Counted from the first letter of the stretch, positions 11,742-52,926 are shown. The stretch: 64,000 nucleotides of DNA from a virus (IMGVR_UViG_3300037851_001014:1-64000); one strand, 5' to 3'. Program-made: numbers and translations. Notes: a model not told the origin generated them from the letters alone.

Positions 11742-11772
11742 GTTTTGTATTTTCCTTATTCAGTTCACAGAC

Positions 11773-11964
11773 TTATGAACATTCCTTCATCACCAAGAGA
11801 TTGATCTCCCGATCAACACGCTGCAAGCAGCTCAATAACGTTATTCCAACTGAACTTATTTCATAATCACCTCCATCAAAAACAACCAGATAGTTTTGAT
11901 CGGCAAGCATCTTGATATTCAAGTCGCCTATCTTCAACAAAGCCAGAACCAGATCTTCAATCAT
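11773..11964 (-). CDS. hypothetical protein
   Basis: 63-aa ORF. Confidence 0.5.
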   Translation of the reverse strand: MIEDLVLALLKIGDLNIKMLADQNYLVVFDGGDYEISSVGITLLSCLQRVDREINLLVMKECS

Positions 11965-12024
11965 TGTAATTTGACAGGTGCCCAGAGCACCCTCCTGCTG
12001 CGAAAATAGAGGAGGAAAGGTAAC

Positions 12025-12330: not shown

Positions 12331-12425
12331 CTTCTCTACTACTCCTGTTCTGAATATACCTGGTCCATCAATACGGATTCTTTCGTATCTTCTGCCACAT
12401 TGTTCGAAATGGATTCATTGTATGT

Positions 12426-13250
12426 TTATCCTGAAGAATTTACCATGCGCTTGTATCCACAATCCGGGCACCAGTAGCAATGGTCAAAATTGTCGAAGGG
12501 ATTAAATCCCAGATCTCTTGCTTCTTTGCCATAAACCTCCCTGCTATTAGGATGCGAGCATCCTAGTCTGAAGAACCTAACCTTGAATACTCCATCACCC
12601 CATTGAGCAGGAAAATAATTTCCCTTGCCCATGAGATCGCTCTCGTATCTACGCGACTGATATCGCTCAGCTGCAGCCAGAGCGTAATGTGGAAAGAAGT
12701 AGTAATGGACATTCCAATGATTGTCCAATCCATCCCATCCACCTGCGCCAGTATATTTTTTCTGAACGTAAATGGTATCTGCGGATATTTTATATTCACC
12801 CTTCATCCAAGCTATGCGCGGATGAACATTTGCCTCACTAGCAGACACACAAACACCCGCAGGCACAAAACTTGCATACTGTCGTATAAATACGTCTACT
12901 GGAAACTCTAAGGGTATTCCCATAAGCAAATGATCTCCTACGGACTTATAATAAAACCGTGGATTTGCCATAAGCGGACCCTTGCCCCAATCCAAGTAGA
13001 GCTGACTGAAACTCATACCAATCATTCCATAATCAGCAGCAACTAACCTGAGAAGGAACTCATGGTACTCGATCTCAACATGGGGATCTGGTAGCCTTTG
13101 CTCCTGCGGCCACTTGAGCCCAATATACTCAGGCTTGTACTGGCTATCGCTAATAATTCTACTGAATCTATCGTTCGTTTGCATAATACTCTCCAACGTC
13201 ACTATCGATCTTTTTAAGGCATTCTTCCAGTGAAGGTGCGCTCCACGCAA
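12426..13250 (-). CDS. hypothetical protein with C-terminal Zn finger
   Basis: 274-aa ORF, GCSH...CYWCPDCG; true start may be MQTND. Confidence 0.75.
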   Translation of the reverse strand: MRGAHLHWKNALKRSIVTLESIMQTNDRFSRIISDSQYKPEYIGLKWPQEQRLPDPHVEIEYHEFLLRLVAADYGMIGMSFSQLYLDWGKGPLMANPRFYYKSVGDHLLMGIPLEFPVDVFIRQYASFVPAGVCVSASEANVHPRIAWMKGEYKISADTIYVQKKYTGAGGWDGLDNHWNVHYYFFPHYALAAAERYQSRRYESDLMGKGNYFPAQWGDGVFKVRFFRLGCSHPNSREVYGKEARDLGFNPFDNFDHCYWCPDCGYKRMVNSSG

Positions 13251-13413
13251 ATATCAAGTCATATGTATAAGCATAGACCTCAACCGAAAATACAGGCCCC
13301 TCCTAATAGTAGTTAATTCGCATATCGCCCACAGTTGTGAGCAGACTAAGCAAAAGATCCATATTGCTGTTCCTCGACATTGTTTTTGTTCCTCTTGCAC
13401 CTGGTATTCAATT

Positions 13414-13584
13414 TCACTGGGTTTCCGTTACTCTGGCACCTAGACAATCGCGTAGAGATTTATCCTCATGCTGGATCCAATAGAATTCCTTACTATGAAC
13501 AATCCGCCTGATAGGCTTACCGCAAATAGGGCAAGGTTTGCCCTTAGTCAAGACCCAACGAGCAAACCAATCAGCCAGAGACAT
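13414..13584 (-). CDS. small Zn-ribbon-like protein
   Basis: Not in ORF track; MSLADWFARWVLTKGKPCPICGKPI...HED....C, 56 aa, directly follows the upstream stop. Confidence 0.55.
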   Translation of the reverse strand: MSLADWFARWVLTKGKPCPICGKPIRRIVHSKEFYWIQHEDKSLRDCLGARVTETQ

Positions 13585-13956
13585 TTAACAGTAATCCTTG
13601 AGTGCCTTTTCAACCCATTCTTGTGGCACAGTATCCTGAACTACAATACAACGGACTGGCGTACTCTCCGAATTTGCTTTAGTTCGCAAATCATTTACTG
13701 GTCTACCTTTGACGATACGCCAGTAACGCACAAAGTAACAGTCAAGTGGACCAAAAGCAGAACTACGACATGGTCCACTTACAATAAACCCAGGTTGAGA
13801 TCCATTTGGATAATCAAATGCTAGTGGGTCTTCAATATGATCGGGCTTATAAATAACCTGATCGCCTCGATGCAAATTGCTATTTGCCTTATGTAACTTT
13901 GTGCTCATTAAGTCAAATTGATTTCCACATCCATAAGTAATGAGTTGAAGTCTCAC
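13585..13956 (-). CDS. hypothetical phage protein
   Basis: 123 aa, GD.VIY.P...QPGFIVS...YFVRYW...LRTKANSE; RBS GGAGG upstream. Confidence 0.7.
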   Translation of the reverse strand: MRLQLITYGCGNQFDLMSTKLHKANSNLHRGDQVIYKPDHIEDPLAFDYPNGSQPGFIVSGPCRSSAFGPLDCYFVRYWRIVKGRPVNDLRTKANSESTPVRCIVVQDTVPQEWVEKALKDYC

Positions 13957-13977
13957 TTACCATTCCTCCATAATCAC

Positions 13978-14391
13978 TTACTTCACATATCCTGCATTTT
14001 GCAGGTATTTCCATACCTGCTGCAGTGTCCGCATTTTATCTTTGAAAAAAGCAGTAACTAGCTTGCCTTCTTCGTAAATCGCAATTCCCCACTTCTCATC
14101 TATCTTGCAGACAAATGCTGTACGAGAGGTATTAGGGTTCCACCAAGTTTCTTGCATACCACCTGATCGGCAAACCCGATCAATCTCCAGTACATCATAA
14201 CCATGCCTCTCTACTGCATGGTCGGTAGTTGCCATCACTTGAGGTAAACCACCAGCCATAATCATAAAGAGCATTACAGCAACAACCAACGATAGGAATA
14301 GCAACAAAACACTACCACCACCAGAGCGGTGATAAGTTTCTTCGGTCACAACACCGCGCTGATCCCACTTTGTAGCGAATTGTTTAGCCAT
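13978..14391 (-). CDS. single-TM protein with possible BECR/DUF4258-like RNase domain
   Basis: Hydrophobic segment VLLLFLSLVVAVMLFMIM, then TDHAVERHG ... IAIYEEGKLVTAFF. Confidence 0.55.
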   Translation of the reverse strand: MAKQFATKWDQRGVVTEETYHRSGGGSVLLLFLSLVVAVMLFMIMAGGLPQVMATTDHAVERHGYDVLEIDRVCRSGGMQETWWNPNTSRTAFVCKIDEKWGIAIYEEGKLVTAFFKDKMRTLQQVWKYLQNAGYVK

Positions 14392-14706
14392 GATGAAATA
14401 CAATCCACCAAGCCTCATGAACAGCATGCCAAAACATACCTGGTCGGCTATTCCAAATTACAGCCCAGGCAAATGATAATCTGTCTCTCATTTTTTTCTC
14501 CCTACTTAGTAGCAATATGGAATACCACCTAAATCAAAAAATGTTCGAAAGAGATTGAGTTCATTCTATACATAGCACAAGCAAACAAATGGCTATTGTT
14601 ACTGCAAGCAACACATAGCCAATGCAACCTTTCATTAAGAGAACCATGTTTGTAGATATTTATACTTATCAATTACCGTAATCTTCAACATTATATTGTG
14701 CATGAT

Positions 14707-15042
14707 TTATCCTGGTACTTGTCTCTGCATCCAATCCACTTCACAAAGGAGTTCTTGGTTATCATAACCAAAAACATCCTCGTCACCACAGTCCACGCAT
14801 TTGCCACTCACAGGCAAAGGCAGACCAAGTTCTTTACGACCTTCTTCCAGTATTTTCTGAGAAAAGGGTCCAAATTCATTTTCCTCAAGGCATACTGGAT
14901 TGTAGGAAAAAACCCAATGCACATAACAGGCTAAACAGGTACATGAATACAAATGACCTGCTGCAATTTTTGTACAATTCCAGGAAAATTCCCTATCCGC
15001 TCTGGCTTTTTGCAACCATTCCTTATAAAGAGATAGGACCAT
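14707..15042 (-). CDS. hypothetical Cys-rich protein
   Basis: Likely start MVLSLY at 15042; CTCLAC, CVDCG...LCEVD. Confidence 0.6.
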   Translation of the reverse strand: MVLSLYKEWLQKARADREFSWNCTKIAAGHLYSCTCLACYVHWVFSYNPVCLEENEFGPFSQKILEEGRKELGLPLPVSGKCVDCGDEDVFGYDNQELLCEVDWMQRQVPG

Positions 15043-15256
15043 TTCCCTCGATCTCCTTACGGATCTCAGCGGTTTCAATTGCAGCCTCTTCATCCACCTT
15101 AGCCTGGATCTCTTTTGAGGCCGCAATTGCCATAGAGGCAGTCTTATATCGTGTATCCGCGTAACGAATCATTTTCCCCTTTACACGTGCTACAGGAATA
15201 TAAAACTTATTCCCATCAGACGTTTTGACCTTCAGATATCTATCTTTGTCTTCCAC
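15023..15256 (-). CDS. hypothetical protein
   Basis: 77-aa ORF overlapping neighbours. Confidence 0.6.
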   Translation of the reverse strand: MEDKDRYLKVKTSDGNKFYIPVARVKGKMIRYADTRYKTASMAIAASKEIQAKVDEEAAIETAEIRKEIEGNGPISL

Positions 15257-15665
15257 GTTTCTTCTCCTCGCATTCAGATGTTATCTGAATATTAATTTTC
15301 CTGGATGAGATAAACTGAGACACAAATTGCAAAAACCGTGTTTCATCACAGCCATAATGTCGAGTCTTGTTGCCATCTGGATAAACAGCAACAAGATACC
15401 CGTCTTCTCTGGAAATTGAAACGCCGGCTGCCTTGATCTCATTAATCCTAGCAATCATGTCTTGAACTTCGTCAGACCGAGCAATTGCTAATTCGAGCGT
15501 TTCAAGTTGCTCTTTTAGGTGCTCGTTCAGAATATTCAAAGTGCGGATCTTCCGCAGCTGGCGTTCATCATAACGTACTAGACGCTCCCGTACCTTAAGG
15601 TACAAGGACAGCCGCCCCTCACTCCAAGATGAAGTTAATACGGTAAGAAGAGTCTCGTATTTCAT
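15240..15665 (-). CDS. hypothetical coiled-coil protein
   Basis: 141-aa ORF. Confidence 0.65.
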   Translation of the reverse strand: MKYETLLTVLTSSWSEGRLSLYLKVRERLVRYDERQLRKIRTLNILNEHLKEQLETLELAIARSDEVQDMIARINEIKAAGVSISREDGYLVAVYPDGNKTRHYGCDETRFLQFVSQFISSRKINIQITSECEEKKRGRQR

Positions 15666-15723
15666 ATGTCAAGCAGAATTGACCAATCGGCAAAAATCCA
15701 ACTACTCCCATACTGTCTCTTGC

Positions 15724-16062
15724 CTACAGAATCTCGACAACATCGAAAGCCCCAACCGGCGAGATGCTATTCCTGCGCATGATGACAATAAATGGTCTGT
15801 ATCCCAGACCCACCCGCATGTGCTCCATCAGGAGCACAGCTACTGTCGACAACCCTGGCAGATGCACCAGGATTGTGGATCTATCGCCGATTAGGTATGG
15901 CAAAGATTGTTCGTAAACTTTGCGCACCTGCGGAGCAAGTGGCTTATCCAAATCCATCTGGCATGGAATATCAACCAACTGGACAGGACCCCTTTTCATC
16001 ATTTCTTCAACCTGACGGATTTGTTCCGCCGTCATGGCATGAGAAAAATTAATTAGAATCAT
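15724..16062 (-). CDS. csx15: Csx15-family (type III CRISPR accessory, ring-nuclease-like) protein, stand-alone
   Basis: MILINFSHAMTAEQIRQVE...IPCQMD...PLAPQV...ILVHLPG...LGYRPFI..MR...FDVVEIL aligns by eye with the Csx15 consensus as I recall it (ILLNFSHPLTxEQxxQIE...IPVQxD...PLxPQ...LVNPP...GxFPxIxRLR...FEVAEI). Confidence 0.8.
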   Translation of the reverse strand: MILINFSHAMTAEQIRQVEEMMKRGPVQLVDIPCQMDLDKPLAPQVRKVYEQSLPYLIGDRSTILVHLPGLSTVAVLLMEHMRVGLGYRPFIVIMRRNSISPVGAFDVVEIL

Positions 16063-31995: not shown

Positions 31996-32478
31996 ATGCC
32001 ATTTACTGTAATTGCTCCGGAACAAAAGACCTTTGTTCTTACCAGTCTCGATGCTTATGGGGCGGTTGATCCAGAACATCCCACAACCATATCGATTAAA
32101 CAGGCACGAGTTAAACAGAACGCTGAGCGCTCACAGCTATTGAGCACCTTTAGAACAGAACGCGCTCGCAGCAAGGATGCTTACGGCGACGAGGTTGAGG
32201 CAACTGTTATCCAGTTGCCAGTGTATGACCTTGTTCTCAAAGAGATCTATCTGACAATGGTAGACTGCAATATCGGCACGCCGAACGGCAAGCCGCTTTT
32301 CACCTTTTCAAGGTCAAAAGATGGCAGTTACCTGAACATGACCTGGGCAGCTTTTGCAGACGCAGCAGGCCTGCTGCCCGATGAGGCCCTTGAGGAAATC
32401 CACGGCAAGGTTATTGAGGTAAACCCTCACTGGCGCATCAGTCAGGCAGACGAGGACTACAGCCTGGGGGAAGAATAG
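31996..32478 (+). CDS. tail assembly chaperone (G-like)
   Basis: 160 aa between the tail tube and tape measure genes; ends CTG GGG GAA GAA TAG. Confidence 0.8.
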   Translation: MPFTVIAPEQKTFVLTSLDAYGAVDPEHPTTISIKQARVKQNAERSQLLSTFRTERARSKDAYGDEVEATVIQLPVYDLVLKEIYLTMVDCNIGTPNGKPLFTFSRSKDGSYLNMTWAAFADAAGLLPDEALEEIHGKVIEVNPHWRISQADEDYSLGEE

Positions 32479-32795
32479 TATCCCGGAAATTGCGTGAGCT
32501 CGAAGCAATTCTCTGGGACTACTACGGGCAGCTAAACGAGATAGCTGCTGGCGTAAAGCCCAAGCCAGAAGATGTCATAGAGAAACCGGAAGCCTTGATG
32601 CGCTATGAGCAAGTCAGGGCACTCAACATTCCTTACGTAGCCGGTGGCCTTGAGGATCAACCCTACATAACGCTCATGGAAGACGGCGTAGTTGAGATGT
32701 TTCTGAAAGCGTGGAAGGGAATCCAGAAAAGGCAGGAGCAACAATGGCAGCAAGTATCGGACCACCAAGCGGAGAAGACTTTGCTAGGACCCTAG
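32466..32795 (+). CDS. -1 frameshift extension of the tail chaperone (GT-like)
   Basis: Slippery GGGGGAA at 32466-72; the -1 frame is open from there through 32490..32795. Confidence 0.75.
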   Translation, partial: GGRIVSRKLRELEAILWDYYGQLNEIAAGVKPKPEDVIEKPEALMRYEQVRALNIPYVAGGLEDQPYITLMEDGVVEMFLKAWKGIQKRQEQQWQQVSDHQAEKTLLGP

Positions 32796-35700
32796 AAGAA
32801 CTTATGGGGGACGAGTATCGTGTTCGCTATATGGGCGAAACCAGATACAATATTGTGCGCTCCAGCCCGCGAGGTGGGCCCAATGGGACTCCTGCTACCA
32901 TTTCTGGGAACTTCAGTTTTGACTTTTGGTCTGCGACTCGTTTCAAGAGCCAGTTTGGTGCAAATAAAGGTTCTGTTGAATATGCTCCGGTGGTGAAGCC
33001 AGATCCTTACGAAGAGAGAGGCTTTGTCGTTCCTGGTGGCATCACATCTGTTGTCGAGAGAAACGAGGAAGATAGAAAGAAGTATATCTCTTCTCACTTC
33101 GTAGAAAATCCAGTAACGAGGTTGGTAAACACACTGGTTTCTGCGTCTGATAGGACTCTTGAAGCAAGGGCGCGCGGCAGAGCAACCAGCACCTGGGAAG
33201 GCGCTGCCATGAACATTCTCTCCGAAGGGGCTCCTGGATCGGAAGAATATGCAGATGTAGCAGGCGGAACGCGGTTTGTAAATAGAAACAACATGTCGAT
33301 GGTGCGTTCTGCATCAAACATGCTTATTCTGCAAACCATTACCCCAGAGGATGCCGGAAAAGACGAAAGGTCGATGCGTTCCAGCGCACTGGAATCGCTC
33401 AAGTCCTGGATTAGTACTCCGGCAGTGGCGCGCGATAGCGGAAATTTCCTGGCCTTCAACCAACTTGGTCTGGCGATTGGGCGCAAAAATGCCAATACAC
33501 TGATACCTTATTCTCAGGGTTATAGATCTGTAACTGATCCGTCCGGCCGCGAATACGCTGAAGTTTATCTCCCTGGCGACCCCTCTAAGTCGAGCAAACA
33601 CTATAATGTCATGTACGGCCGACGCGAGGGCGTTACGCCGTTAGATGCCACAGGTGTGCCAATTCAAGCAGGAGCTATTCGGGGCGCTCGGGGGTGGGGC
33701 ATCAGGAGAACTACAGCAGATTATCGTGGGCAGGTACCGCAAGAGAGTTGGATTGGTGGCTTGCTGATGACCAGGTCGCTGCCAATTCCGGGAACCGGAC
33801 AGTATTTTCCACAGAATGTGTCTTCTGCTGGAATATCGTCTGTCGGGTTTGATACCGTGCGAGAATTGCCCGTAACCAGTGATATCGGCGGGCTTCTTTC
33901 CGGGACTGTCAAATACACACCCGCGTCCGACTTGATGGGCAGGCATCACCCCGGAATGACCAGAATGAGCTATGGCACACTGGAGGCACAGGGAGAGCTG
34001 CCAATTTCTCTCTCGACGAGAAACAAGGCGGGCGGCTTCAGACCAAGTAATCAGCAGTTGGTGTTGCCGCAGTATTACGATCCAAAAACCGGCCTGGGTA
34101 TGGTCTACAGCGAGGGAAACGCCAGGCTCGGGACAGAGATCACCGAGACACAGGCTGCGGCATTGTCCAAGTCGCTGGGAATTGACGTTCGGCTTGACCC
34201 CTTTTCTGATCGTGCGATGTGGCGTTCCGAGGGGTTCCTATCCACGGGCGCGAAAGTTGCCGGTCTTGGACTTAAGACGGCCTTGACCGCCATGCTTGGA
34301 AGACCGTCAATTGGGATTGGGAAAACTGATCTTCCTGTAGATATAGCCACCGGCGAAGTGAAGTCATTCCCCACGATGCTTCTTTCCAACTTTCCCACTC
34401 TTTCCAGGGCAAGGCAAGCCGATCTTTTGCGTGAAACTGGCGCGCGCCTGAATAACCCCGCTTTCACACGAGCGGCGTCGCGTGTCCAGAAAGGCGGATA
34501 TGGCGAAAGATTGGACATGGAAAGACTTGCAGAGGACATTTATGGCGTTGGAGCTCCAGTAAACGAGCTCATGAAAGAAGTTTACGGCACTGTCGTTCCC
34601 GGACTAGGAGAGAATCCTACCCAGGTGGAGATAGCCAGATACGCAGCGAGCGATGTTAATCTACGCAATCTTGAGCGGTACGGTATAGGGTTTATCGATC
34701 CCTCAATGGAAAGCAGGGGCGTTCGTGTTCCAGAGCTTAGTTGGCGTGTATCTAAGAAACAGTTCGTAGACCTTGAGCAGGCTTATCTTGCGGCAAACCG
34801 AGAGCGCGTTATAGCTGCCGGTGGCGATCCTAGGAAAATCTCTATCAAGGACGCACGCCAGGCCTTTTTGACAGAATATGGTCTGACGCCCGTGGCTAAC
34901 GAGCCCGGGATGTGGCAAGCGCACACTAAGGCAAGCGGTTTTTATATACGCGGGGCTTTGCCACTTGGGGTTGAGTGGTATGGTGCCGGACAAGTGCACG
35001 CAGAAGAGGCCCAGCTAGTCAATGCTATCTCACCAGAATGGGCTTACCGACTTGGGATTGGGTTGACGCCAGGATCAAAAGGGCGCGGTGGGTATGACAG
35101 AAACATATCACCAACTCGACAGGCGAAAATACTTGCCGCAAAGACTGTTGCGGCAATGTACGCAGATACTCCAATGGGCATAGAGCATTCTGTTGTGACG
35201 GATACAATGGCCGGCAATCTGGTAGCAGATACTGATTTTATGGCCTTGCTGGAGAGAAAGCCAGATAATCCTGGTACTGTTGCCGACTTTGATATCGTAA
35301 GGGAAAGAATGCAGAGGGAGATGGAGATTGCCTACGGGAATAAGGCAGCCAATGTGGACAAGGTTCCTTTGCAGTTCGGAGATCTTGAGGGCGCCTATCT
35401 CCTGCCTGCTGGATCAATCCGGGCCACTATGGCGGTGGATCAGGCTACAGGACAAGATCAAGCCAGACTTCTTGACAGATATTTAGGTACGCTTGGGCGC
35501 GCCTTGAGAGGGCAAGTAGCAGGCAAGCCAGGGGAAATTACGCATAGCCTGTATGGTCTCGCGGACACCTACGCCGAGTCGATGGGCGTAAGCTCACACA
35601 CGAAAAGCGACATGGTAAAAGATTTGATGGGTTCAGATCTCGGATGGTCTGTTGGTCGCTATGGCTGGGCAGGCGAGGTCCAGCAGCACCAAGTCACTGG

Positions 35701-38700
35701 CAGCAAGGCAGTCTGGCTGCAACAGATCAGGGCAGAGATAGCTGAACAGGTTGGCGTTGATACAGAGAACAATCCGCTCACAGATGCCGAGATCGAGGAA
35801 ATATATGGCAGTGTTGCAAATGTCTCTGCGTTTTCAGAGGGTGTTCCTGGCCTAGCAATGCGCTATCCAATCGTTGGCGGTTCCAAAGAATCTGCCCTGG
35901 GCGTTCGTTTTCTAACCCCCGAACAAGCGCAAAAGCAAGGTGTCGCTACTGTGGATACCCCCTTTGGGGATTACTGGAACATATCTACCGGGTTGTCTTC
36001 TATTTTCCAGGGCGACTTCGACTTAGATCAAATGGCGACGCTTATGGGTATAAAAGCGTATCGAGACAAAGGGGGCAAGCTACGCCATTCCTGGACGCAA
36101 CTGGACGAGAAAGGCAATATCGATCCAAAGTTAATGGCCTCTATCAACAGAAGCGCAACCATGAACTACCAGGACCTGCAGCGGAAAATGTTCCCATCGT
36201 CCGCTATGCAGAACAGGTTCAACCCGCTTCTTGGAGCGTTCTCTGATCGGTTCGCCGGTCAGAATGTTGGAGATCTCGGTTTTTCGTACAGGTTGATGCG
36301 TAAGCAAATGGCCGCATCCAGATTTTACAATATAGGCGAGCTGCTCACCGGAACGCATATTGTCCAGAAGGCAGCTGGCGAGGAAATGGGTGCGTCATAC
36401 AACCTGACGCGTGCTCTTGAATCGGCATCTATCATGTCTCGTTGGTCGACGGCAAGTATTCAAAAATCACGCGTCTCGCGTGCGCCAGTCTATCAGCCGT
36501 ACCTTGACAAAAGCACGTCTATTCCGGTATCGATGACTGAGATGTTTAGAACGGCGTATCTCAGCACTCCAGAAGGAGCAATGGCTCCTGAGCTTGGCTG
36601 GGCAACCCCAGAGGCTAAAGAGTTGTCTACCGAGCCTCAGTGGACAAAGAGAAAGATAGCACTGACTCCCGAGAATGCCATGCCGTTTCTGCGAGCTTTA
36701 ACCGAATCTGCCGCGCGTCCTCATGTTGTGCCTGGAAAGTTCGCTGATCTTCCATCGCCCAACCTGCTTGCCCGTGCCCTTGCGCCATACCCAGGGATGG
36801 CTTTTGGAACAATCAAGCCTAGGTACCTGAAAGCCTACAACAGCCAATTCAAGACATGGGAAGATCTTGTCGTAGGTGGTGGTACAGACGAGCAAATAGC
36901 ACAGGCGGGAAAATTCTTCAAGGGCGTGCCACTGGAGGCAGCTATTAAATCTGCCCAGGAGGCTACCTGGGGACTTGGAGAGAGCGATCAAGACTTGCTG
37001 CTCGGCAGACGCACAAAAGGCACTGCGGATGTAGTTGAGGCATGGTACAAACAGAACATTCCAGAAGATTTGCAACAGGTCTATGCCAGTACTCTTGCGC
37101 AGTCCATGATCGGAAAGGCCTACTTCTCGGCGCAGGCTGATGCAACCAAGACGATACCATCCTCATGGGAAAAGTCTGATTTTGGGGCAGAGACTGTTCA
37201 ACGGGCGCGCCGGTGGCGGGTTGGATACGACATGGCGCGTGGCATTGTCCCCGAAATGGGTGCGTTCAAGGAGACCTACGATTGGCTAAGTGGCATCGAT
37301 AGAAGTGTGCGATCCCAGGGAGCGGAGCTTATCTTGCGCATGGGCAAGCTCTTTGGCGCAGCCGAGGCTGTACCTTTGTCAATGGCCGGCTCTCAGATGC
37401 TCTATGAGAAAGCAATGGCAGCTCCAATATCCTTGCGCTCAAGTACCTATGGCGATATCGGGAATCCTGTTTATACGAACAAGCTCGTCGGAGGGAACAA
37501 AAGAGTCGACTCGGGATTATACTCGTCTGTTTTGAGCACGGTGGCGAGCACGCTCAATCTTGGCGGTATGGATGTTAATGCGCTGCAGGCTGCTTTCCTT
37601 CCAAGTGACGAACAAGGGCTTGCGCACATGAGACGCGGGAACAGGTTCGAAGACCGTCTCGCTAAAGTTGCTGGCGAAGCCATGTATCACAGCGGACTGT
37701 CTGGATACGCAAATCTTGGCTCGGGCGATCCAACGAAAGCGGTTTCGTCGGCTTTCTCTCTTGTTGAGGACATAGAGCTTGGGGACGGCCAAAGAACGAC
37801 AGTCGTAATGCACGGAACGCCAGACTTTCTTCTCCCAATTGGCGGCAAACTGTACGAAGTTGAGACCAAGAATCCCCAAAAGCAGGCCGGTACGAAAGCT
37901 GCGCAGATGGAGAAGTACAAGGCGCAGACTGATATGGTTCGCTATATCATAGAGAAAAAGGTTGGTCGCATACTTAATCCAAATTTAGCGCAAGGCTTTA
38001 GGGACAAAGAGGCTGCCGAGCTTAGATCATCTTTGCGTTGGTATATGCCAGAAGAGCAGATTGATGAGGCATACGAAATGCTCCTCGCCCAGGGTGGCGC
38101 TGGCTCGATCTTGTTCAATGTTGGCGCTGACACAGATCTGTACAAAAGCATAATGCACGGGAAAATCGACAAAGCGCATGCTCAAGTCATGAAAGAAGTG
38201 GCGTCTGAAGATAGCCCGTATGTGGTCGAGAGGGTAGAACCTCTTGCGGGCGGACAATACGCAGAGCGTTTTGAGAAAAACAAAATGCGTGCTATCCGGG
38301 AAGTTTACAGCAAGCGCGGCGGTGTCCTCGAAGAGCTTGTTGGACTGTTGTCGCCTGCACAAAAGTTTCACAGAATGCGCCTTGGGCAAAACCCAGACCT
38401 GGCGACCACGTGGCAATCGAGACGAGCAATGGATGTTCTTCAGCGCGCTCGGCATGGACTTCTGTCTCTTGGAAAATACTTCTACGATCTAAGGGAGGCG
38501 GCTCATGCCGCCAGCCCTGGAGCAACGAGAGCGGCAACTCCCGAGGAACAAGCCGCAGCTGCATCTACTCCTCCCCAGCCACCTCCAGTGGCACAAAACG
38601 CATCATCGCCGCGGGCACAAACAGCAACCCCAGGAACAGCACCCGCAAGTCAGACACCAATTACCAACGCCGCAGATATGCCTATTGAGGAACTACGTGC

Positions 38701-41700
38701 ACGGGCTAGCATGCTTGGATTATCCAGGACAGCTGCTGCGAAGAAAACAAAAGAGCAATTGGTTGAGTTTCTCGATCCAGCAAATAAGGACAGGACACCA
38801 GTAGGCCAGAGGCTGAGCAAGTCAAGCATAAGCGATCTTCAGAGAGGTCTACTGGAGGCAGATTCAGCAATGGCTTATGCACCTTACGTGCCTCCTCCTG
38901 CCACGCCTGTTCAGGCAAATCCTGGACCGACTGCAGGAGCCGCGCCCCCTCCTTCAGTCCCGCCAACGCCTGGTGTCAACGCTGCTGCTGCAGCCGCAGC
39001 AACGGCCGGGCTTGCGGCGATGGCTGGTGGTGGTCAACCTGGTAGCCCTGGTGATACAAGTGGTTCCCCGGGACAGCCACCCGAGGGAGGCGGGTTTATC
39101 AAGCCGACCTCAGTGGCGCAGCAGATCGTCGGACTTTACCGCACGCGGGGACAGGCAATCCAGGAGGCAGCAATTGCCCTGCGAACTCAGTTTGGCGTTA
39201 CAGAACGTGGAACTTTGAGGAGAGGTATTACGGGACGCGAGGAAGAATTTGCCCAGGCAGCCCTAAAGCATCAAGAGGCGATTATGGACGCCCAGGCTCT
39301 GGTGGCTATGGGAGTGGCTTTCCAGAAAGGGCCGCGTGGCGTCGATATGGGCTTTCTTGACAAAGATGCTGCTGATATCATAGACAAGGTAACGACAACT
39401 GGCACACCTATGGGGAAAGATCTGTTAGATCTGGAGGGCGCCGGGCAGGAGATGACCAGATATAGCAAAGCGGCGATCAAGAGAGCCAGGCTTGCAAACC
39501 TCGAAAGAAGGCTTGCCACAGGTGGTGTCGGCGACCAGATATCTAGTTGGTTTGGGGATGGTGTTACTCCCATGGATCCTGACGACCTGGCTGCCCAGAT
39601 AGAGAAAAACCCAGCAGCCGCCGAGGCTTTCAGAATTGCTAGGAACTTTTCCAAAAAAGATGCTACCCGTATGGCGAGCGAGTTCCCAAGATCCGCAGCA
39701 CTCATACAGTACACAGAGGGCATGAAGGGCCATCCTGGGTTTGATGCCGCTATCAAAGAAAAGCCCGCTGCGACCAAGTCTCTCATTGCTGATGACGTAA
39801 AGGCGACGTGGGCGGAGAAGTTTACCAGGGCCGCTGACGAAGCCACTGCAGCGCTCAAGAAGTTTAGTGGAGCCGCCCAAAAAACAAGTGATCTCCACGA
39901 GAAAACAGCCCAGGCGTTGAAGGCTCTGAGCATAGAGGAAGCCTACGGCAAGCTCATTACAGCTGCCGCCAAGGTTGGCAAGGAGCCAGAGAAGGACAAC
40001 CTTGGCAGACTCAAGCTATCGCCTACGGGAAGAGCACAGTACGAGAGTCTGACAGCACAGGAGGCCGCCGCGGCTGAGATTGGCGATGTCGAATCGTACC
40101 AAAGCGCCCTGACTGGATTCCAGCAGGCTACTACAGCCCCCACTACCAAGAAAGGGGCTATTGGGAGGCTTGTTGACAGACTTGCTGGGCCTCCTGAACC
40201 AGACGATCCGGCGATCAACATGCGCCGATTCCTGGGTGGCTTTGGCCTGATGTACCTTCGCAGTCTGTGGGGCATTGCGACTGGCGGTCTTGGATACGGT
40301 ATGCAGGAGCGCGCTGAGACAATGCAGCAGCTTGGCGGTCCCTCGGCGCAGATGTTTGGGGCGATATACAGACCGAATGTCCCTGGTGTTGCTTTGAGAA
40401 ACATTATGGGTGCTACTGGCGTAGGCGGAAACCCGCTGCTGCAGTTCCAGGAGATGTATGCACGCACCCCCTTGCTGCAGGACGCAGGTACCGCACTTGG
40501 CGCAGGGCTAGGAACCTATGCTCTTGCCCAGCAGGTCGGAATGTGGAGCGGCAGCAATACCCTAAAGAGCATCCTTGGTAAATGGGCTGTTCCAATCGCA
40601 GCTGGGGTTAGCGCAGCAACGTTGCTGTCTTCCGCTGCCGGAAAGCTGTCAGACACAGAGAGCGTTGGCTACCGTCTTGCTACGGCGCCTGTGCTCGGAA
40701 AATCATTCACCGACGAGTGGGCATACTTGATGGGCAGTCAGCAGCAAAAGGAGCAGATTGGCATCGCAATAGGACAATATGAAAGAATAACAAAGGGTGG
40801 ATTTTCTCAAGGTAGCACCAGGAACATTCGGTCTGTGTCGCAGATGATTCCCGTCGATACTCCAGTAGGAGAGTATTTTGGAACAGTTGAGGAGAAGATC
40901 AGCCTGGCTGCGACCGGACGACCGGACTTGTACAATACTCTTACCGAGGGCCAAAGAGCTAGCACCTATCAGCGTCTGACGCAAGCCCAGATATCGCATT
41001 TTGCCCCACAGTTTTCGGCAGAGGCGAGTCAGGCTGCTATGGATTTTGCCTTTAGAACAAGAGCCGTTATGGGGCAGACAGGAATGCAGACGCTCACGGC
41101 ACGCATCCAGCAGGGTTACTCTCCGCAGATTGCCCAGGCATACATGGCAGCAAGTGGTTATTCTGTAGCCGGAATGTATGCTGGTGCTGCTGGCCCTGGG
41201 ACGCAAGCCAACCTGATGAACTATTACAATACGCTTGCTCCAATGGCCACAACGCAGAACTTGCCGTATCTCGAAGCGGCCATTGGCGTCATGGGAGCGA
41301 CAATTCCCATGAATACCTATATAACCCAGATGGGCATGCGTGGTGCGATCGGCATGGACACCGAGGCATATCAAAAGGCATTGGCTGCCCTGGTACCAGG
41401 AAGCTCGCAATACAACCAATACACTGCCGCAGGTGCTCAATGGGCGCGGCTGCAGGAATTTGGACGTGCAGCATCACCGCCGAATCCTGTAGACTTCACA
41501 ACTATGAATGCTCAGGAAACGCGCCTTGAGGAGCTAAGGCAGGCTGAAATGCAAGAAAGCCTGAACACAGAGGATGCTCTGCAAAGAGCATTGGTTCTCA
41601 GGGGCTTCTCCGCCCAAGACGCCTACGCCTTCACCAGGGGGATTTATACAACAGCGAGGGGCGGCCAGCTGAGCGAGTATGAAACCACCACCGAGCTTGG

Positions 41701-43864
41701 CAGAGAACTGGAAAGACAGCAGCGACTTGGGCTAGTGGAGAAGTGGTTTACCGATCGCGGTGTTTCTGCTCGACAGCGCAAGCAGATGTATGCCCCAGAA
41801 TACGAAAAAATGAGCATCTCTCAACTGCAGCAATACATGCAGAAGCAGAGCGTCGCAGAAGGGCTAGAGAGTGCACTTATCGGTGCAGGCGTAAGCTATA
41901 ACATCAGCGACATTCTGGCCATACCTGGTGGCACTATGCAGCAGGCAGCTGTATCTGCTTCAGTGGCCCAGGAGATTCAAGCGCAAGCTGCCAGCGGAGT
42001 AACTGGTTTTAGCCTGACGCAGCTTTACGAAAACGCAAAAGGAGCGGGGCCTCAAGAGTTTGCTGGTATGGTTTCTACGCAGCAGTGGATGCGCGAGACA
42101 ATGGCTCCCCTGATGCGGCAAACAGGCAGGATGCCAGGATGGGCTGCTGATGCATGGGCAACTAGCGGCCAGAGTGCTGCAAACTGGGGAGCGAACGTTC
42201 CTCGTGCATGGCGGGATATCTATCAAGGTGTTGCCCAATATGACCCCTGGGCATCTACCCAAATGTATGCCTATCAGCAGATGGGAATACAGCCACCCAA
42301 CATCGGATTGCCAGAATTGACTAATCTCCCGTCCGAGATGGTAACACGGGACATCTGGCAAACCGGCCCGATGGCCGGACTTCCGCTCAATGCGCCAATG
42401 TGGACAGTCTCCGGTGCGTCGCACCCCAACTTCCCGCTACTGCAGGCTACTACTGGCGGAGCAGTGAATTGGGGTACTGGCGTAGGCAAGGCATTCTCTC
42501 AGGGATACACGATACCCGGAATGAGCTTCCCCGTTGCAGGCATTATGGGTATGCAGAGTTACATGCAGCAGCTGCAGTATCAGTCTGGCATGGCGCAAAT
42601 CGGCAACCAGCTCGCTCAGCTTAACATGTCGATGGCTTTCCAGACTGGCGTTGGCCTGGATGCATATGCGGGAATAATCAACCCACAGACCAACAAGCCG
42701 TTCGGATTCAATACCGGCCCTTCTAGCTGGAGTATTCCTGGCGTTGGCAGATACACATCTGAGGGCGGTGGCATGTGGGGCATCCAGGATGCCATGCGTA
42801 ACCTAGGTTATGCTCAACAGGAATGGCAGTTTGGTTTTCAGGAACGCCAACTTGGGATGAGTCGCTCGCAGTTTGCCGAGAACTTCTCTCTCAACAGGCA
42901 ACAGACCTTGATGCAGCGTGGCTGGGCAATGCAGGATTGGGGCTACCAGGACACCACCCGCAATCTGCAGTGGCAGTGGCGGCAAGAGGACTATGCCGAA
43001 CAGGCAAGATTCATGACCGGTCGCGATCGGCGTCTTGCAGAGCGCGGAATGAAGCGCGAGACCACCATGTTCAATCTTGAGACTGAACAGATCGATAAAC
43101 AACGCGAGCGGCAGAAAGAGATGTGGAAACTGGAGGACGAGCGCTTCAAGCTGCAGAAGAAACACTTCGAAGAGCAGATGGTCATGCAGGAAGAGCAGCA
43201 AGATATGATGCGCAAGTTCTATGCCGAGCGTATCGCCCTTGAAGAAGAGCAGATCAAGCTGCAGCGTGCCCAGCAGGTTCAGCAGGCGGAATATCAGAAG
43301 CAATCCCTGGGTATCCAGGCGGCCATGCTTGCGGCCCAAAAGGAATACTCAGAGATCCAATCCGGGATCGAGCTTGCTAACTTGGCGATCCAGTCTGGCA
43401 TTGCCGATGTTCAGGCCAAACAGTCCGGACTCGTCACCTTAACCGAGGATAATATAGAAGCTGTGTTTGCCTCGCTAAACGACTGGATTGCTAGAGTTCT
43501 CGGTACTCTAGGCGGGGGACCTCCTGTGCCCACCACCACGAACCCCCCGCATAGTCAGAGTGGCTATATACCAGAAGAGGATATAGAGTCAGATCCGCCC
43601 ACTCACGGCGGTGCGCACGGCACTTTTGTCAGTGCTGGTCAAGGAACCGTTGTCAGCGAGGAGGGGCTAATCGAGTTCTTTACTCCCCAGAACAGCGGCA
43701 CGATAATCCCGCTCAAGTCGTTCAATGCCTGGACAACCACTGTGATGCCATCGCAAAAGCCGGTTGTTGAAACGAGCACACCCAAGACCATAAACATTTT
43801 CATTGGTGATCAACACCTCAAGACGTTTGTGCTGGACGCGATAGACGAAGCGCTGGAGGCATAG
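32744..43864 (+). CDS. giant tape measure protein fused to a two-barrel RNA polymerase-like region and a PD-(D/E)XK nuclease
   Basis: AGGAG RBS and ATG at 32744; canonical TMP position. C-terminal GG...VVSEEG.IEFFTP..SGTIIP TMP motif; GDFDLDQMA 36011-37; RYP 35861-69; GAKVAGLGLK 34247-76; GTPDF...YEVETK 37814-70. Confidence 0.85.
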   Translation: MAASIGPPSGEDFARTLEELMGDEYRVRYMGETRYNIVRSSPRGGPNGTPATISGNFSFDFWSATRFKSQFGANKGSVEYAPVVKPDPYEERGFVVPGGITSVVERNEEDRKKYISSHFVENPVTRLVNTLVSASDRTLEARARGRATSTWEGAAMNILSEGAPGSEEYADVAGGTRFVNRNNMSMVRSASNMLILQTITPEDAGKDERSMRSSALESLKSWISTPAVARDSGNFLAFNQLGLAIGRKNANTLIPYSQGYRSVTDPSGREYAEVYLPGDPSKSSKHYNVMYGRREGVTPLDATGVPIQAGAIRGARGWGIRRTTADYRGQVPQESWIGGLLMTRSLPIPGTGQYFPQNVSSAGISSVGFDTVRELPVTSDIGGLLSGTVKYTPASDLMGRHHPGMTRMSYGTLEAQGELPISLSTRNKAGGFRPSNQQLVLPQYYDPKTGLGMVYSEGNARLGTEITETQAAALSKSLGIDVRLDPFSDRAMWRSEGFLSTGAKVAGLGLKTALTAMLGRPSIGIGKTDLPVDIATGEVKSFPTMLLSNFPTLSRARQADLLRETGARLNNPAFTRAASRVQKGGYGERLDMERLAEDIYGVGAPVNELMKEVYGTVVPGLGENPTQVEIARYAASDVNLRNLERYGIGFIDPSMESRGVRVPELSWRVSKKQFVDLEQAYLAANRERVIAAGGDPRKISIKDARQAFLTEYGLTPVANEPGMWQAHTKASGFYIRGALPLGVEWYGAGQVHAEEAQLVNAISPEWAYRLGIGLTPGSKGRGGYDRNISPTRQAKILAAKTVAAMYADTPMGIEHSVVTDTMAGNLVADTDFMALLERKPDNPGTVADFDIVRERMQREMEIAYGNKAANVDKVPLQFGDLEGAYLLPAGSIRATMAVDQATGQDQARLLDRYLGTLGRALRGQVAGKPGEITHSLYGLADTYAESMGVSSHTKSDMVKDLMGSDLGWSVGRYGWAGEVQQHQVTGSKAVWLQQIRAEIAEQVGVDTENNPLTDAEIEEIYGSVANVSAFSEGVPGLAMRYPIVGGSKESALGVRFLTPEQAQKQGVATVDTPFGDYWNISTGLSSIFQGDFDLDQMATLMGIKAYRDKGGKLRHSWTQLDEKGNIDPKLMASINRSATMNYQDLQRKMFPSSAMQNRFNPLLGAFSDRFAGQNVGDLGFSYRLMRKQMAASRFYNIGELLTGTHIVQKAAGEEMGASYNLTRALESASIMSRWSTASIQKSRVSRAPVYQPYLDKSTSIPVSMTEMFRTAYLSTPEGAMAPELGWATPEAKELSTEPQWTKRKIALTPENAMPFLRALTESAARPHVVPGKFADLPSPNLLARALAPYPGMAFGTIKPRYLKAYNSQFKTWEDLVVGGGTDEQIAQAGKFFKGVPLEAAIKSAQEATWGLGESDQDLLLGRRTKGTADVVEAWYKQNIPEDLQQVYASTLAQSMIGKAYFSAQADATKTIPSSWEKSDFGAETVQRARRWRVGYDMARGIVPEMGAFKETYDWLSGIDRSVRSQGAELILRMGKLFGAAEAVPLSMAGSQMLYEKAMAAPISLRSSTYGDIGNPVYTNKLVGGNKRVDSGLYSSVLSTVASTLNLGGMDVNALQAAFLPSDEQGLAHMRRGNRFEDRLAKVAGEAMYHSGLSGYANLGSGDPTKAVSSAFSLVEDIELGDGQRTTVVMHGTPDFLLPIGGKLYEVETKNPQKQAGTKAAQMEKYKAQTDMVRYIIEKKVGRILNPNLAQGFRDKEAAELRSSLRWYMPEEQIDEAYEMLLAQGGAGSILFNVGADTDLYKSIMHGKIDKAHAQVMKEVASEDSPYVVERVEPLAGGQYAERFEKNKMRAIREVYSKRGGVLEELVGLLSPAQKFHRMRLGQNPDLATTWQSRRAMDVLQRARHGLLSLGKYFYDLREAAHAASPGATRAATPEEQAAAASTPPQPPPVAQNASSPRAQTATPGTAPASQTPITNAADMPIEELRARASMLGLSRTAAAKKTKEQLVEFLDPANKDRTPVGQRLSKSSISDLQRGLLEADSAMAYAPYVPPPATPVQANPGPTAGAAPPPSVPPTPGVNAAAAAAATAGLAAMAGGGQPGSPGDTSGSPGQPPEGGGFIKPTSVAQQIVGLYRTRGQAIQEAAIALRTQFGVTERGTLRRGITGREEEFAQAALKHQEAIMDAQALVAMGVAFQKGPRGVDMGFLDKDAADIIDKVTTTGTPMGKDLLDLEGAGQEMTRYSKAAIKRARLANLERRLATGGVGDQISSWFGDGVTPMDPDDLAAQIEKNPAAAEAFRIARNFSKKDATRMASEFPRSAALIQYTEGMKGHPGFDAAIKEKPAATKSLIADDVKATWAEKFTRAADEATAALKKFSGAAQKTSDLHEKTAQALKALSIEEAYGKLITAAAKVGKEPEKDNLGRLKLSPTGRAQYESLTAQEAAAAEIGDVESYQSALTGFQQATTAPTTKKGAIGRLVDRLAGPPEPDDPAINMRRFLGGFGLMYLRSLWGIATGGLGYGMQERAETMQQLGGPSAQMFGAIYRPNVPGVALRNIMGATGVGGNPLLQFQEMYARTPLLQDAGTALGAGLGTYALAQQVGMWSGSNTLKSILGKWAVPIAAGVSAATLLSSAAGKLSDTESVGYRLATAPVLGKSFTDEWAYLMGSQQQKEQIGIAIGQYERITKGGFSQGSTRNIRSVSQMIPVDTPVGEYFGTVEEKISLAATGRPDLYNTLTEGQRASTYQRLTQAQISHFAPQFSAEASQAAMDFAFRTRAVMGQTGMQTLTARIQQGYSPQIAQAYMAASGYSVAGMYAGAAGPGTQANLMNYYNTLAPMATTQNLPYLEAAIGVMGATIPMNTYITQMGMRGAIGMDTEAYQKALAALVPGSSQYNQYTAAGAQWARLQEFGRAASPPNPVDFTTMNAQETRLEELRQAEMQESLNTEDALQRALVLRGFSAQDAYAFTRGIYTTARGGQLSEYETTTELGRELERQQRLGLVEKWFTDRGVSARQRKQMYAPEYEKMSISQLQQYMQKQSVAEGLESALIGAGVSYNISDILAIPGGTMQQAAVSASVAQEIQAQAASGVTGFSLTQLYENAKGAGPQEFAGMVSTQQWMRETMAPLMRQTGRMPGWAADAWATSGQSAANWGANVPRAWRDIYQGVAQYDPWASTQMYAYQQMGIQPPNIGLPELTNLPSEMVTRDIWQTGPMAGLPLNAPMWTVSGASHPNFPLLQATTGGAVNWGTGVGKAFSQGYTIPGMSFPVAGIMGMQSYMQQLQYQSGMAQIGNQLAQLNMSMAFQTGVGLDAYAGIINPQTNKPFGFNTGPSSWSIPGVGRYTSEGGGMWGIQDAMRNLGYAQQEWQFGFQERQLGMSRSQFAENFSLNRQQTLMQRGWAMQDWGYQDTTRNLQWQWRQEDYAEQARFMTGRDRRLAERGMKRETTMFNLETEQIDKQRERQKEMWKLEDERFKLQKKHFEEQMVMQEEQQDMMRKFYAERIALEEEQIKLQRAQQVQQAEYQKQSLGIQAAMLAAQKEYSEIQSGIELANLAIQSGIADVQAKQSGLVTLTEDNIEAVFASLNDWIARVLGTLGGGPPVPTTTNPPHSQSGYIPEEDIESDPPTHGGAHGTFVSAGQGTVVSEEGLIEFFTPQNSGTIIPLKSFNAWTTTVMPSQKPVVETSTPKTINIFIGDQHLKTFVLDAIDEALEA

Positions 43865-51339: not shown

Positions 51340-51858
51340 ATGGCAGATGTCAAGGTAGAAGATCTAGCGGCAATCGCAAGTCCGGCATTAACAGACTTGC
51401 TCTACGTCGTGGCCGATCCGGGGGGTACGCCGGCAAGCAAGAAGGCAACCCTGGCGAATATTGCCCTGGCGCTTGGCTTTGGGGCGTTGACAGACTGGAC
51501 ACCCACCATTACACAGAGCAGTACGATAACTAAGACAATAGTGGGTGCTAAATATTGCAGGATCGGGCAACTGGTGTTTTTGGATGCTGCTATGAACATT
51601 ACAGGTGCGGGGTCAACTGGCAATGCGATAATAATATCAAATCTGCCAGTTGCGGCTGCCGCGAATGGTGTTTGTGGTACAGCAAGGATAGATAATACTG
51701 GAACACTACTTTATGAAGGTGCAGCGTACATGAATGCAGGTGCAGGGCAGATAACATTTAGGGCACACCTGGAAACAAATGATATCGGGGCAGATCCCAG
51801 CTTTGCACTAGCGAACGGGGACGTCATTAAGTTTCACGCAATGTATGTGGCAGCTTGA
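51340..51858 (+). CDS. tail fibre tip/adhesin paralogue 1
   Basis: MADVKVEDL...DPGGTPASKKATLAN...DWTP followed by a variable beta domain. Confidence 0.7.
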   Translation: MADVKVEDLAAIASPALTDLLYVVADPGGTPASKKATLANIALALGFGALTDWTPTITQSSTITKTIVGAKYCRIGQLVFLDAAMNITGAGSTGNAIIISNLPVAAAANGVCGTARIDNTGTLLYEGAAYMNAGAGQITFRAHLETNDIGADPSFALANGDVIKFHAMYVAA

Positions 51859-52523
51859 CAAAGGGAGCATAAATGGCAGATACTAAGGTAACTGGACTCA
51901 CGGAAATAACCAACCCTGCACTAACAGACTTGGTGTATGTGGCTGCCGATCCGGGGGGTACGCCGGCAAGCAAGAAGGCAACCCTGGCGAATATTGCCCT
52001 GGCGCTTGGCTTTGGGGCGTTGACAGACTGGACACCGGTCATTATGCAGGGTGTAACAGTGGCTAGCACGACAATATATGCCAAATACTGCAGGATTGGG
52101 CCATTGATGTATATATGTGCCAGTGTAGCTATCGTGGGTGCGGGAACATCTGGCGCCGCTGTCTTTGTAACAGGTATGCCAGATAATCCTGCCTATATAG
52201 GCGGCTTTGGTATAGGGCTTGTGGAAAATGCTGGAACAGCGTTCTACGCGGGCGAAGCAGAATGCAACACAAATGGCACCATCGGATTTATTTGTCACCT
52301 AGAGATATCTGCTATAGGCATAGACCCAAACTTCGCATTGGCGAGCGGGGACGGCCTTTATTTTTTCGCGGTTTACCCAGTCTAGGCAAAAGGAGATAAC
52401 CGATATGGCAGACACTAAAGTATCGGAACTTGCGGAAATAACTAACCCGGCATTAACAGACTTGCTCTACGTCGTGGCCGATCCGGGGGGTACGCCGGCA
52501 AGCAAGAAGGCAACCCTGGCGAA
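51382..52523 (+). repeat. identical direct repeats in the 5' parts of the three paralogues
   Basis: 92 bp identical at 51412-51503 and 51945-52036; 77 bp identical at 51382-51458 and 52447-52523. Confidence 0.9.
51873..52385 (+). CDS. tail fibre tip/adhesin paralogue 2
   Basis: Same N-terminus and the same DPxFALAxGD C-terminus as paralogue 1. Confidence 0.7.
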   Translation: MADTKVTGLTEITNPALTDLVYVAADPGGTPASKKATLANIALALGFGALTDWTPVIMQGVTVASTTIYAKYCRIGPLMYICASVAIVGAGTSGAAVFVTGMPDNPAYIGGFGIGLVENAGTAFYAGEAECNTNGTIGFICHLEISAIGIDPNFALASGDGLYFFAVYPV

Positions 52524-52926
52524 CTTCAAGCTGGCGATCGGCTTCGGAGCATTGACGGACTGGACACCGTCTATTACCCAGAGCGTATCTGTTAGTAAAA
52601 CAGTCACATACGCCAAATATTATACTATTGGGCCATTGATGTATATATGTGCACTTATGTCGATCACAGGCGCGGGAACCGGGAACAACAATATTTTTAT
52701 TGGGAACTTACCTGCTCAGCCCGCCAGCAATGGGGTTTATGGTACGGCATGGATACTAAACAATGGAACAGCCTATTATCACGGACCGGCTTATTACACA
52801 ACCGGGGCAGGAGGCGCGTTCTATTTCATTTGCCATCTAGAAGTGGCTGGGTGTGGAATAGACCCAAACTTTGCACTAGCGTCTAGTGACATGATCGCAT
52901 TTTGTGCGCTATACCCCACAGCGTGA
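52405..52926 (+). CDS. tail fibre tip/adhesin paralogue 3
   Basis: Same architecture as paralogues 1 and 2. Confidence 0.7.
   Translation: MADTKVSELAEITNPALTDLLYVVADPGGTPASKKATLANFKLAIGFGALTDWTPSITQSVSVSKTVTYAKYYTIGPLMYICALMSITGAGTGNNNIFIGNLPAQPASNGVYGTAWILNNGTAYYHGPAYYTTGAGGAFYFICHLEVAGCGIDPNFALASSDMIAFCALYPTA

Follow-up and report, generated by a model that had tools for sequence, protein, structure and literature searches.

Does a phage tail tape measure protein also carry an RNA polymerase (RNAP)? The question is raised by IMGVR_UViG_3300037851_001014, an IMG/VR virus record of 82,822 bp estimated to be 80% complete, whose first 64 kb form the stretch of DNA analyzed here (the window). 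On translation, positions 32711-43864 of the plus strand constitute a single open frame that, counted from a GTG, has 3,717 codons, and residues of the encoded protein are numbered from that GTG throughout. A preliminary description of the locus had noticed active-site motifs of two-barrel RNAPs inside this frame. It had pointed to two precedents, both of which check out: P23-45 gp96 (also P74-26, G20c, and TSP4; PDB 8H2M, 8H2N), a tape-measure-fused virion RNAP (Chaban et al. 2024, PMC10770324), and gp66 of phi14:2 (a crAss-like phage), which carries a D-F-D-I-D motif (bioRxiv 10.1101/2020.03.07.982082). Conserved motifs and predicted structures now indicate that residues ~330-1330 probably form a single-chain two-barrel RNAP within the tape measure, which would be ejected via the tail and transcribe early genes. 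From this assignment we infer catalysis, presence in the virion, ejection, and the identity of the genes transcribed.

The motifs are compact and well defined. The putative metal loop Q-G-D-F-D-L-D-Q-M-A spans residues 1100-1109 (nt 36008-36037), M-R-Y-P residues 1050-1053 (nt 35858-35869), and the lysine-pair stretch G-A-K-V-A-G-L-G-L-K-T residues 513-523 (nt 34247-34279). Translation returned these three motifs, together with a C-terminal motif at residues 3643-3668 (nt 43637-43714), exactly where the preliminary description had placed them. From the residue frequencies of the tape measure protein itself, the calculated number of chance occurrences of D-F-D-x-D-Q-M-A is 2e-6 per 3,717 aa and 8e-5 when the six frames of 64 kb are considered. 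The bare D-x-D-x-D pattern, expected about 9 times in the six frames of the window, is not rare and therefore constitutes weak evidence when taken alone.

Conservation adds considerably to these motifs. An exhaustive HMMER search of 1.84 billion representatives returned 13 relatives at E <= 1e-20 besides the database copy of the query. Twelve of these are giant proteins (3,011-4,095 aa) and the thirteenth is a 560-aa fragment; identity is about 30% throughout. They are accompanied by a weak 850-aa match at E 6e-6. Ten relatives were looked up; they come from metagenome assemblies, on contigs of up to 77-95 kb, and are either nameless or called "hypothetical protein". In the 13 sequences made up of the tape measure protein and its 12 full-length relatives, G-D-x-D-x-D, R-[YW]-P, K-x6-K, and Y-Q-P-x-L-D are each kept in 13/13, while most other alignment columns vary. 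The lysine pair (K515, K522) accordingly has the spacing of 7 rather than 8 that had been noted for this protein alone. Within the aspartate loop, F, Y, E, or Q occupies position 2, and L, A, W, Y, or Q occupies position 4. Distances are also constrained across the family: 51-54 residues separate R-[YW]-P from the first aspartate, 587-644 separate A-K-x-A-x-x-G-x-K from the aspartate loop, and Y-Q-P-x-L-D follows that loop by 153-163 residues. Judged from these sequences, motif conservation and constant spacing raise the observation above chance.

Structure prediction addresses the fold surrounding the aspartate loop. An AlphaFold2 model of residues 331-1500 (m30892eb0983c) was computed without templates from a 14-row alignment, and its predicted local distance difference test (pLDDT) values are mostly 70-90 over model residues 55-830 and low beyond. 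Foldseek against the PDB gave 24 matches at E <= 1e-3, all of them RNAP largest subunits (bacterial beta', Rpa190, archaeal RpoA, and an AR9 beta'-like chain). A second structural search, independent of Foldseek, covered 48,161 representative PDB chains, of which the best 50 rows were considered. Ranks 1-14, with values of 7.4-9.3, comprise Pol II, archaeal RpoA', Pol I, vaccinia, mycobacterial and plastid beta', the AR9 and PhiKZ non-virion RNAPs, QDE-1, Pol IV, Pol V, African swine fever virus, and Pol III. Lower ranks hold generic double-psi barrels (Cdc48-N and designed ones) at 5-7, P74-26 gp62 at 6.8, and P23-45 gp96 at 5.4-5.5. RNAP subunits hence stand 2-3 Z units above generic barrels, and their alignments reach beyond the barrel. 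No MltA or RlpA structure occurs among the best 50 rows; gp66 (6VR4) is likewise not among them, which does not exclude a match. The local order in the model is strand, short helix, aspartate loop, and strand, the pattern found around N-A-D-F-D-G-D of beta'. The double-psi beta-barrel on which the polymerase assignment depends is thus predicted, and the region around the aspartate loop appears, in the model, to fold as a beta'-type barrel carrying a D-x-D-x-D Mg-binding loop.

Structural searches of BFVD with the same model extend the comparison to viral proteins. The best match was an uncharacterized protein of Microcystis phage MaMV-DC (E 5e-9, 842 columns). A "minor tail protein" of uncultured Siphoviridae sp. 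ctnpt50 (E 4.6e-5) was also found, as were RNAPs of nudiviruses, giant viruses, and jumbo phages. The MaMV-DC and ctnpt50 proteins are, on these modeled folds, further candidates for unannotated tail-associated polymerases.

A beta-like counterpart is suggested upstream. A separate N-terminal model (residues 371-790, mean pLDDT 75) gave no Foldseek match at E <= 1e-3, with beta and Rpb2 chains enriched among the weak top rows. In the second structural search, its best 50 rows are all second-largest RNAP subunits. Model residues 8-144 align with E. coli beta 830-1059, Rpa135 803-908, and Rpb2 810-925, which correspond to the flap/wall domain, and longer alignments extend to place model residues 149-156 on beta 1066-1077. 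As modeled, the domain before the lysine pair matches only beta flap or Rpb2 wall domains among these 50 rows; gp96 and gp64 are not among them, which says nothing on relationship. In cellular beta, the pair K1065/K1073 comes after the flap, and in the tape measure protein the lysine pair comes directly after the flap-like domain. The lysine loop itself is of low confidence in this model (pLDDT < 50).

Two further elements complete the putative enzyme. The helical connector contains a conserved beta-hairpin, and it is at this hairpin (model residues 425-427) that the structural alignments to QDE-1, gp62, and gp96 start. Downstream of the aspartate loop, a long predicted helix carries invariant M1226, Y1230, and R1234, with [ST]-Y-[ND]-x-T-R in 9/13 sequences, and we take this pattern to resemble the bridge-helix signature G-Y-x-x-R-R-L. 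The region has no structural match, and we infer that helix 1208-1242 is a bridge-helix-like element. The module order would then be a flap-like domain with the lysine pair, a helical connector of ~400 residues, a beta'-like double-psi barrel with G-D-F-D-L-D, and the bridge-helix-like element. Coordinates are collected in Table 1.

Table 1. Features of the tape measure locus and of the surrounding contig; positions refer to the window unless marked otherwise.
Feature	Position (nt)	Strand	Details
Candidate tail assembly chaperone pair	31996..32795	+	160-aa ORF 31996-32478; open -1 frame 32418-32795; stop-to-stop ORFs (open reading frames)
Giant tape measure gene	32744..43864	+	3,706 aa; open frame from 32711
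Beta-rich domain resembling the flap/wall of RNAP second-largest subunits	33842..34243	+	residues 378-511; structural matches
Lysine-pair loop, candidate counterpart of the beta K1065/K1073 loop	34247..34279	+	K515, K522; consensus A-K-x-A-x-x-G-x-K; invariant 13/13
Invariant E549 and K551 (G-E-V-K-S-F-P) after the lysine loop	34352..34372	+	columns E179/K181, alignment A2
Mostly helical connector, ~400 residues	34391..35590	+	residues 561-960; secondary structure of model m30892eb0983c
Conserved beta-hairpin in the connector	34970-35008	+	residues 754-766; invariant E755, G758, E765
Predicted double-psi beta-barrel A, beta'-like	35630..36178	+	residues 974-1156; R1051-Y-P1053 (nt 35861-35869); metal loop D1102/D1104/D1106 (nt 36014-36028)
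Candidate bridge helix, then invariant Y-Q-P-x-L-D (1261-1266)	36332..36508	+	35-residue predicted helix 1208-1242 (model 878-912), pLDDT < 50
PD-(D/E)xK nuclease-like motifs (P1704-D1705, E1718-x-K1720)	37631..37870	+	residues 1641-1720; read from sequence
Conserved Gly-rich hydrophobic segments	40223..40645	+	residues 2505-2645; hydropathy peak 2621-2644
C-terminal tape-measure core, W/Q/R-rich with coiled-coil	42158..43864	+	40-62% identity across family; C-terminal motif 43637-43714
Palindrome copies	exact 10086, 15273, 17046, 23716, 60874; one mismatch 28474, 55632, contig 74289		

Several results weigh against this reading, most of them from searches at the sequence level. The whole protein drew no match in Pfam (E <= 1), in PHROGs, or among PDB sequences, nor did the 12 relatives in Pfam (E <= 0.01) and PHROGs; for the relatives and the protein itself alike, the curated tape-measure models of both collections are unmatched too. 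A PDB profile search with the family alignment gave coiled-coil noise only, and the tape measure protein is unmatched by the Pfam models RNA_pol_Rpb1_2, RNA_pol_Rpb2_6, and RdRP PF05183. The profile-level comparison with P23-45 gp96 and gp64 that the preliminary description had proposed revealed no kinship: hhalign of the family against the single sequences of gp96 (residues 1-1250) and gp64 gave probabilities of 0.1-1.5% (gp96 0.1%). Against a profile of 28 Chloroflexota rpoC segments, the best local E was 0.074, and against a Chloroflexota rpoB profile it was 0.19, neither of them significant. The structural evidence also has weak points. The 14-row alignment is shallow, the beta'-like motif may have guided AlphaFold2, and pLDDT falls below 50 at the aspartate loop, at the lysine loop, and everywhere past model residue 836, which includes the bridge helix/trigger loop region. 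No family member has Gly at position 4 of the metal loop, and a Gly-free loop goes in gp66 with a crystal conformation incompatible with catalysis, the enzyme being nonetheless active (bioRxiv 10.1101/2020.03.07.982082). At the genome level, repeat and k-mer scans of intergenic regions of the ~80% complete contig found no promoter motif confined to one arm, and no genome end was identified on that contig. A gp64 query likewise found no second polymerase of this kind there, such proteins being known to escape sequence searches.

The failure of Pfam does not exclude membership in the superfamily, because gp96 is described as equally undetectable by sequence. The registers of the two hhalign comparisons match the structural alignments and are by themselves no evidence: with rpoC, L-L-G-S-D falls on L-L-G-K-R, R-Y-P on R-A-P, and G-D-F-D-L-D on A-D-F-D-G-D; with rpoB, A-K falls on D-K and L-R-x-P on L-R-V-P. 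A protein language-model search ranked viral PF05183 (QDE-1-type) clusters first with a score of 0.82, which is a lead only. A word-indexed homologue search matched the tape measure protein itself and nothing else, and none of 50,697 phage records was matched by tblastn. On these sequence comparisons, the putative polymerase family is a new one, unrelated in sequence to gp96.

Other explanations of the same data have to be set against a tape-measure-borne transcription enzyme. That the motifs are a chance resemblance in a long, compositionally ordinary protein gains something from the frequency of D-x-D-x-D, about 9 copies being expected, and from the presence of another on the contig, in ORF 3800-5503, which reads as TOPRIM-type. 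Such an origin is scarcely credible given the expectation of 8e-5 per window for D-F-D-x-D-Q-M-A, the invariance of the motifs, and a predicted fold that matches independently of the motif; conservation and structural matches together effectively refute it. It is improbable, though less far-fetched, that the region is a polymerase-derived or generic double-psi barrel without activity, serving as a structural or plug domain or acting on the cell wall in the manner of RlpA or MltA-3D. Barrels of this wall-acting kind are often carried by tail proteins. Yet the RNAP subunits score 2-3 Z units higher than generic barrels, MltA and RlpA are absent from the best 50 rows, and the flap-like domain occupies the correct place in the order. 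Moreover, three aspartates, R-x-P, and two lysines are invariant in 13 sequences, and a relic would not need them.

A genuine two-barrel polymerase with another task is the strongest of these rivals, and it too is unlikely. Such an enzyme could make replication primers, copy RNA as QDE-1 does, or cooperate with the putative PD-(D/E)xK nuclease next to it at the ends of host or phage DNA. The characterized virion two-barrel polymerases, gp96 and gp66, nevertheless all transcribe early genes, and cellular RNAP subunits outscore QDE-1 in the structural search. The missing promoter set, which might seem to speak for another task, says little, as the contig is incomplete.

By position and architecture, the 3,706-aa product is a tail tape measure, because its gene lies after a chaperone pair and before tail-tip and lysis genes, hydrophobic segments are present, and the C-terminal core is common to other giant tape measures. 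The preliminary description had made the same identification from position and the C-terminal motif, and it stands. The last 60 nt of the 160-aa ORF upstream (31996-32478) overlap an open -1 frame (32418-32795), which is the typical G/GT-like chaperone arrangement ahead of tape measure genes; a library search assigned neither ORF to a family. Translation most likely starts at ATG 32744, because AGGAG precedes it at 32732-32736, the N-terminal consensus of the family agrees, and an independent public assembly encodes the exact 3,706-aa protein. The database gene call begins at Met32 and yields 3,686 aa. Further upstream on the same strand lie a portal gene (PHROG 64, Pfam SPP1_portal), a capsid protein gene, and a gene for a 461-aa Big_5 Ig-domain protein that, from its position and without a tail family match, may be the major tail protein. 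Large unannotated tail genes and an endolysin gene follow downstream.

Behind the polymerase region, the tape measure protein contains additional parts. Directly behind it, nuclease-like motifs occur in the order R-R-G-N-R-F-E-D, P-D-F, and E-x-K, and a regular expression for P-D ... E-x-K matches 8/13 family sequences, including the tape measure protein. Between this motif and the ruler part, residues 1992-2021 (38684-38773) form, by eye, a SAP/Rho-N-like stretch with the look of a helix-turn-helix, flanked on either side by Pro/Ala-rich low-complexity linkers. The Gly-rich hydrophobic segments are probably the membrane-inserting part of the tape measure; residues 2501-2550 reach 45% identity across the family.

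The delivery of the putative enzyme can be outlined. The polymerase would be built into the tail lumen as part of the tape measure and would exit the tail with it at infection. The hydrophobic middle of the tape measure would insert into the membrane. The N-terminal polymerase, positioned next to the leading DNA end, would then refold and transcribe the first-entering genes without host RNA polymerase. The mechanism is carried over from gp96, for which Chaban et al. demonstrated it, because the overall design is the same.

The repeat and k-mer scans yielded only a dispersed 17-bp palindrome, TTCAGAT-N3-ATCTGAA (7-bp stem, 3-nt loop), which occurs in five exact and three one-mismatch copies on the 82.8-kb contig. 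By our own estimate, chance would account for far fewer than one exact copy. Three of the eight copies are inside late genes; the others are intergenic or sit immediately upstream of minus-strand (early-side) genes. The palindrome is absent from the related loci that were fetched; it might serve as an operator, or the virion polymerase might use it as a hairpin-type promoter. With regard to other polymerases, the T7-type Pfam model PF00940 matched nothing on the contig, but it also matched no control genome, so that this result carries no weight. The minus-strand ORF 3800-5503 (567 aa), the only other ORF of appreciable size with D-x-D-x-D, contains V-E-K-D-S, S-G-K-G, and D-Y-D-T-D-G motifs and two Cys pairs, with no Pfam match. 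It was considered as a second RNA polymerase and rejected, as its motifs read as TOPRIM/TopoVI-A-like despite the D-x-D-x-D.

Base composition differs along the window: the left minus-strand arm (1-16000) has 42-47% G+C and the structural arm (22000-56000) about 49-55%, with 53-61% at 16-20 kb. Most of the left-arm proteins tested lack a family match. Three tandem paralogous genes of ~172 aa occupy 51340-52926, with 275-nt N-terminal blocks that are 74-77% identical (repeat family D1). The right arm (contig 64001-82822) encodes a DnaB-like helicase, a C-5 cytosine methylase, DUF5131, a DUF4942 methyltransferase-like protein, RadC, and an AAA_24 protein; neither a DNA polymerase nor an RNA polymerase was recognized among its products.

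The host and the origin of the fusion are approached through more distant tape measures. In BLASTP, the C-terminus matched a 3,419-aa tape measure (L008:752-11011) at E 3e-80, with 763 aligned residues that are 32% identical; that protein lies on a 66,957-bp contig from a metagenome-assembled genome (MAG) labeled uncultured Leptolinea sp. The C-terminal 760 residues are common to tape measures on Leptolinea sp. and Anaerolineaceae bacterium MAG contigs, with 40-53% identity over the most conserved 180 residues. In the Leptolinea MAG protein, the C-terminal motif reads V-G-E-N-G-P-E-L, the usual form at tape measure C-termini. That protein has in common with the present one only the membrane segment and these 760 residues; BLAST finds no relationship for the 2,200 residues at its N-terminus. 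They contain R-D-P, then I-H-P, then G-D-N-D-A-D, a beta'-like order; Pfam found nothing in them, and the language-model search gave no usable match. By its motifs, this N-terminus could represent another polymerase cargo, distinct from the present one, carried by the same scaffold.

The preliminary description had favored a Chloroflexota host, and this proposal gains indirect support. The C-terminal relatives fit a host in that phylum (Anaerolineae), although binning can misplace phage contigs. The polymerase region itself was found neither in 401 genomes of the class of the Leptolinea MAG nor in the three MAGs themselves.

A tentative extension of these comparisons, which we regard as possible and rather doubtful, is that polymerase and tape measure became fused a second time, independently. 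A beta/beta'-like single-chain polymerase, built with a flap, a long connector, and a non-Gly metal loop, would have been captured along with a PD-(D/E)xK nuclease onto a scaffold with exchangeable N-terminal cargo. The Anaerolineae-associated sister tape measures bear a different N-terminus with its own G-D-x-D-x-D. Under such an origin, tape measures would be a general vehicle for swappable enzyme modules, and polymerase and nuclease would act together on the entering DNA.

In the literature searched, injection of a transcription enzyme by the tail ruler is demonstrated for one narrow group of Thermus phages. The rarity claimed for the strategy holds there, as tape-measure-fused polymerases are reported only in Thermus phages. 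Here we propose the same architecture for a family that has no sequence relationship to gp96, numbers at least 13 giant proteins, comes from uncultured phages of 77-95 kb, and is probably tied to Anaerolineae. If these proteins are active, tape-measure-borne polymerases would be a recurring solution rather than a curiosity. They would also supply a second enzyme of different build in which to consider the tail-tube passage of a polymerase of more than 1,000 residues, a Gly-free metal loop, and the role of a fused nuclease. In addition, the family exposes a blind spot, since Pfam, PHROGs, and PDB sequence searches recognize none of its members.

Comparison with cellular enzymes and with the PF05183 clade delimits the family. 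Relative to beta and beta' (E. coli rpoB and rpoC; Rpb2 and Rpb1), the putative polymerase is one chain, far smaller, and has a lysine spacing of 7 instead of 8. Zn-binding, clamp, dock, and sigma-binding elements are not recognized in it. The PF05183 model, whose clade includes phi14:2 gp66 and Neurospora QDE-1 (PDB 6VR4, 2J7N, 7Y7P), is unmatched. The Gly-free metal loop is held in common with gp66, which is, in contrast, a separate virion protein of a short-tailed phage and not a tape measure.

P23-45 gp96 remains the closest precedent in design. It carries D-F-D-G-D at 779-783, has a minimal active fragment of 327-1124 with a connector at 613-679, and displays no detectable sequence similarity to known RNAPs (PMC10770324). 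It is present in virions within the full-length protein and, at the genome end, binds the pre-early genes and transcribes them, and the viral survey in the supplement of Chaban et al. lists gp96-type proteins for Thermus phages only (PMC10770324). The likeness lies in a polymerase module at the tape measure N-terminus, here residues ~330-1330 of 3,717, without any sequence relationship between the two. The gp96 phage has gp64 as a second, non-virion polymerase among its pre-early genes, whereas none of that kind is visible here on an incomplete contig. In build, gp96 is flat and clamp-less with a short connector, whereas 587-644 residues, ~400 of them predicted helical, lie here between the lysine motif and the aspartate loop. 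The flap-like domain, the Gly-free metal loop, and the downstream PD-(D/E)xK motif (D1705, E1718, K1720) further set the present protein apart from gp96. The principle has thus already been published with gp96; what is new is a separate unannotated family of distinct build, probably from a different host phylum.

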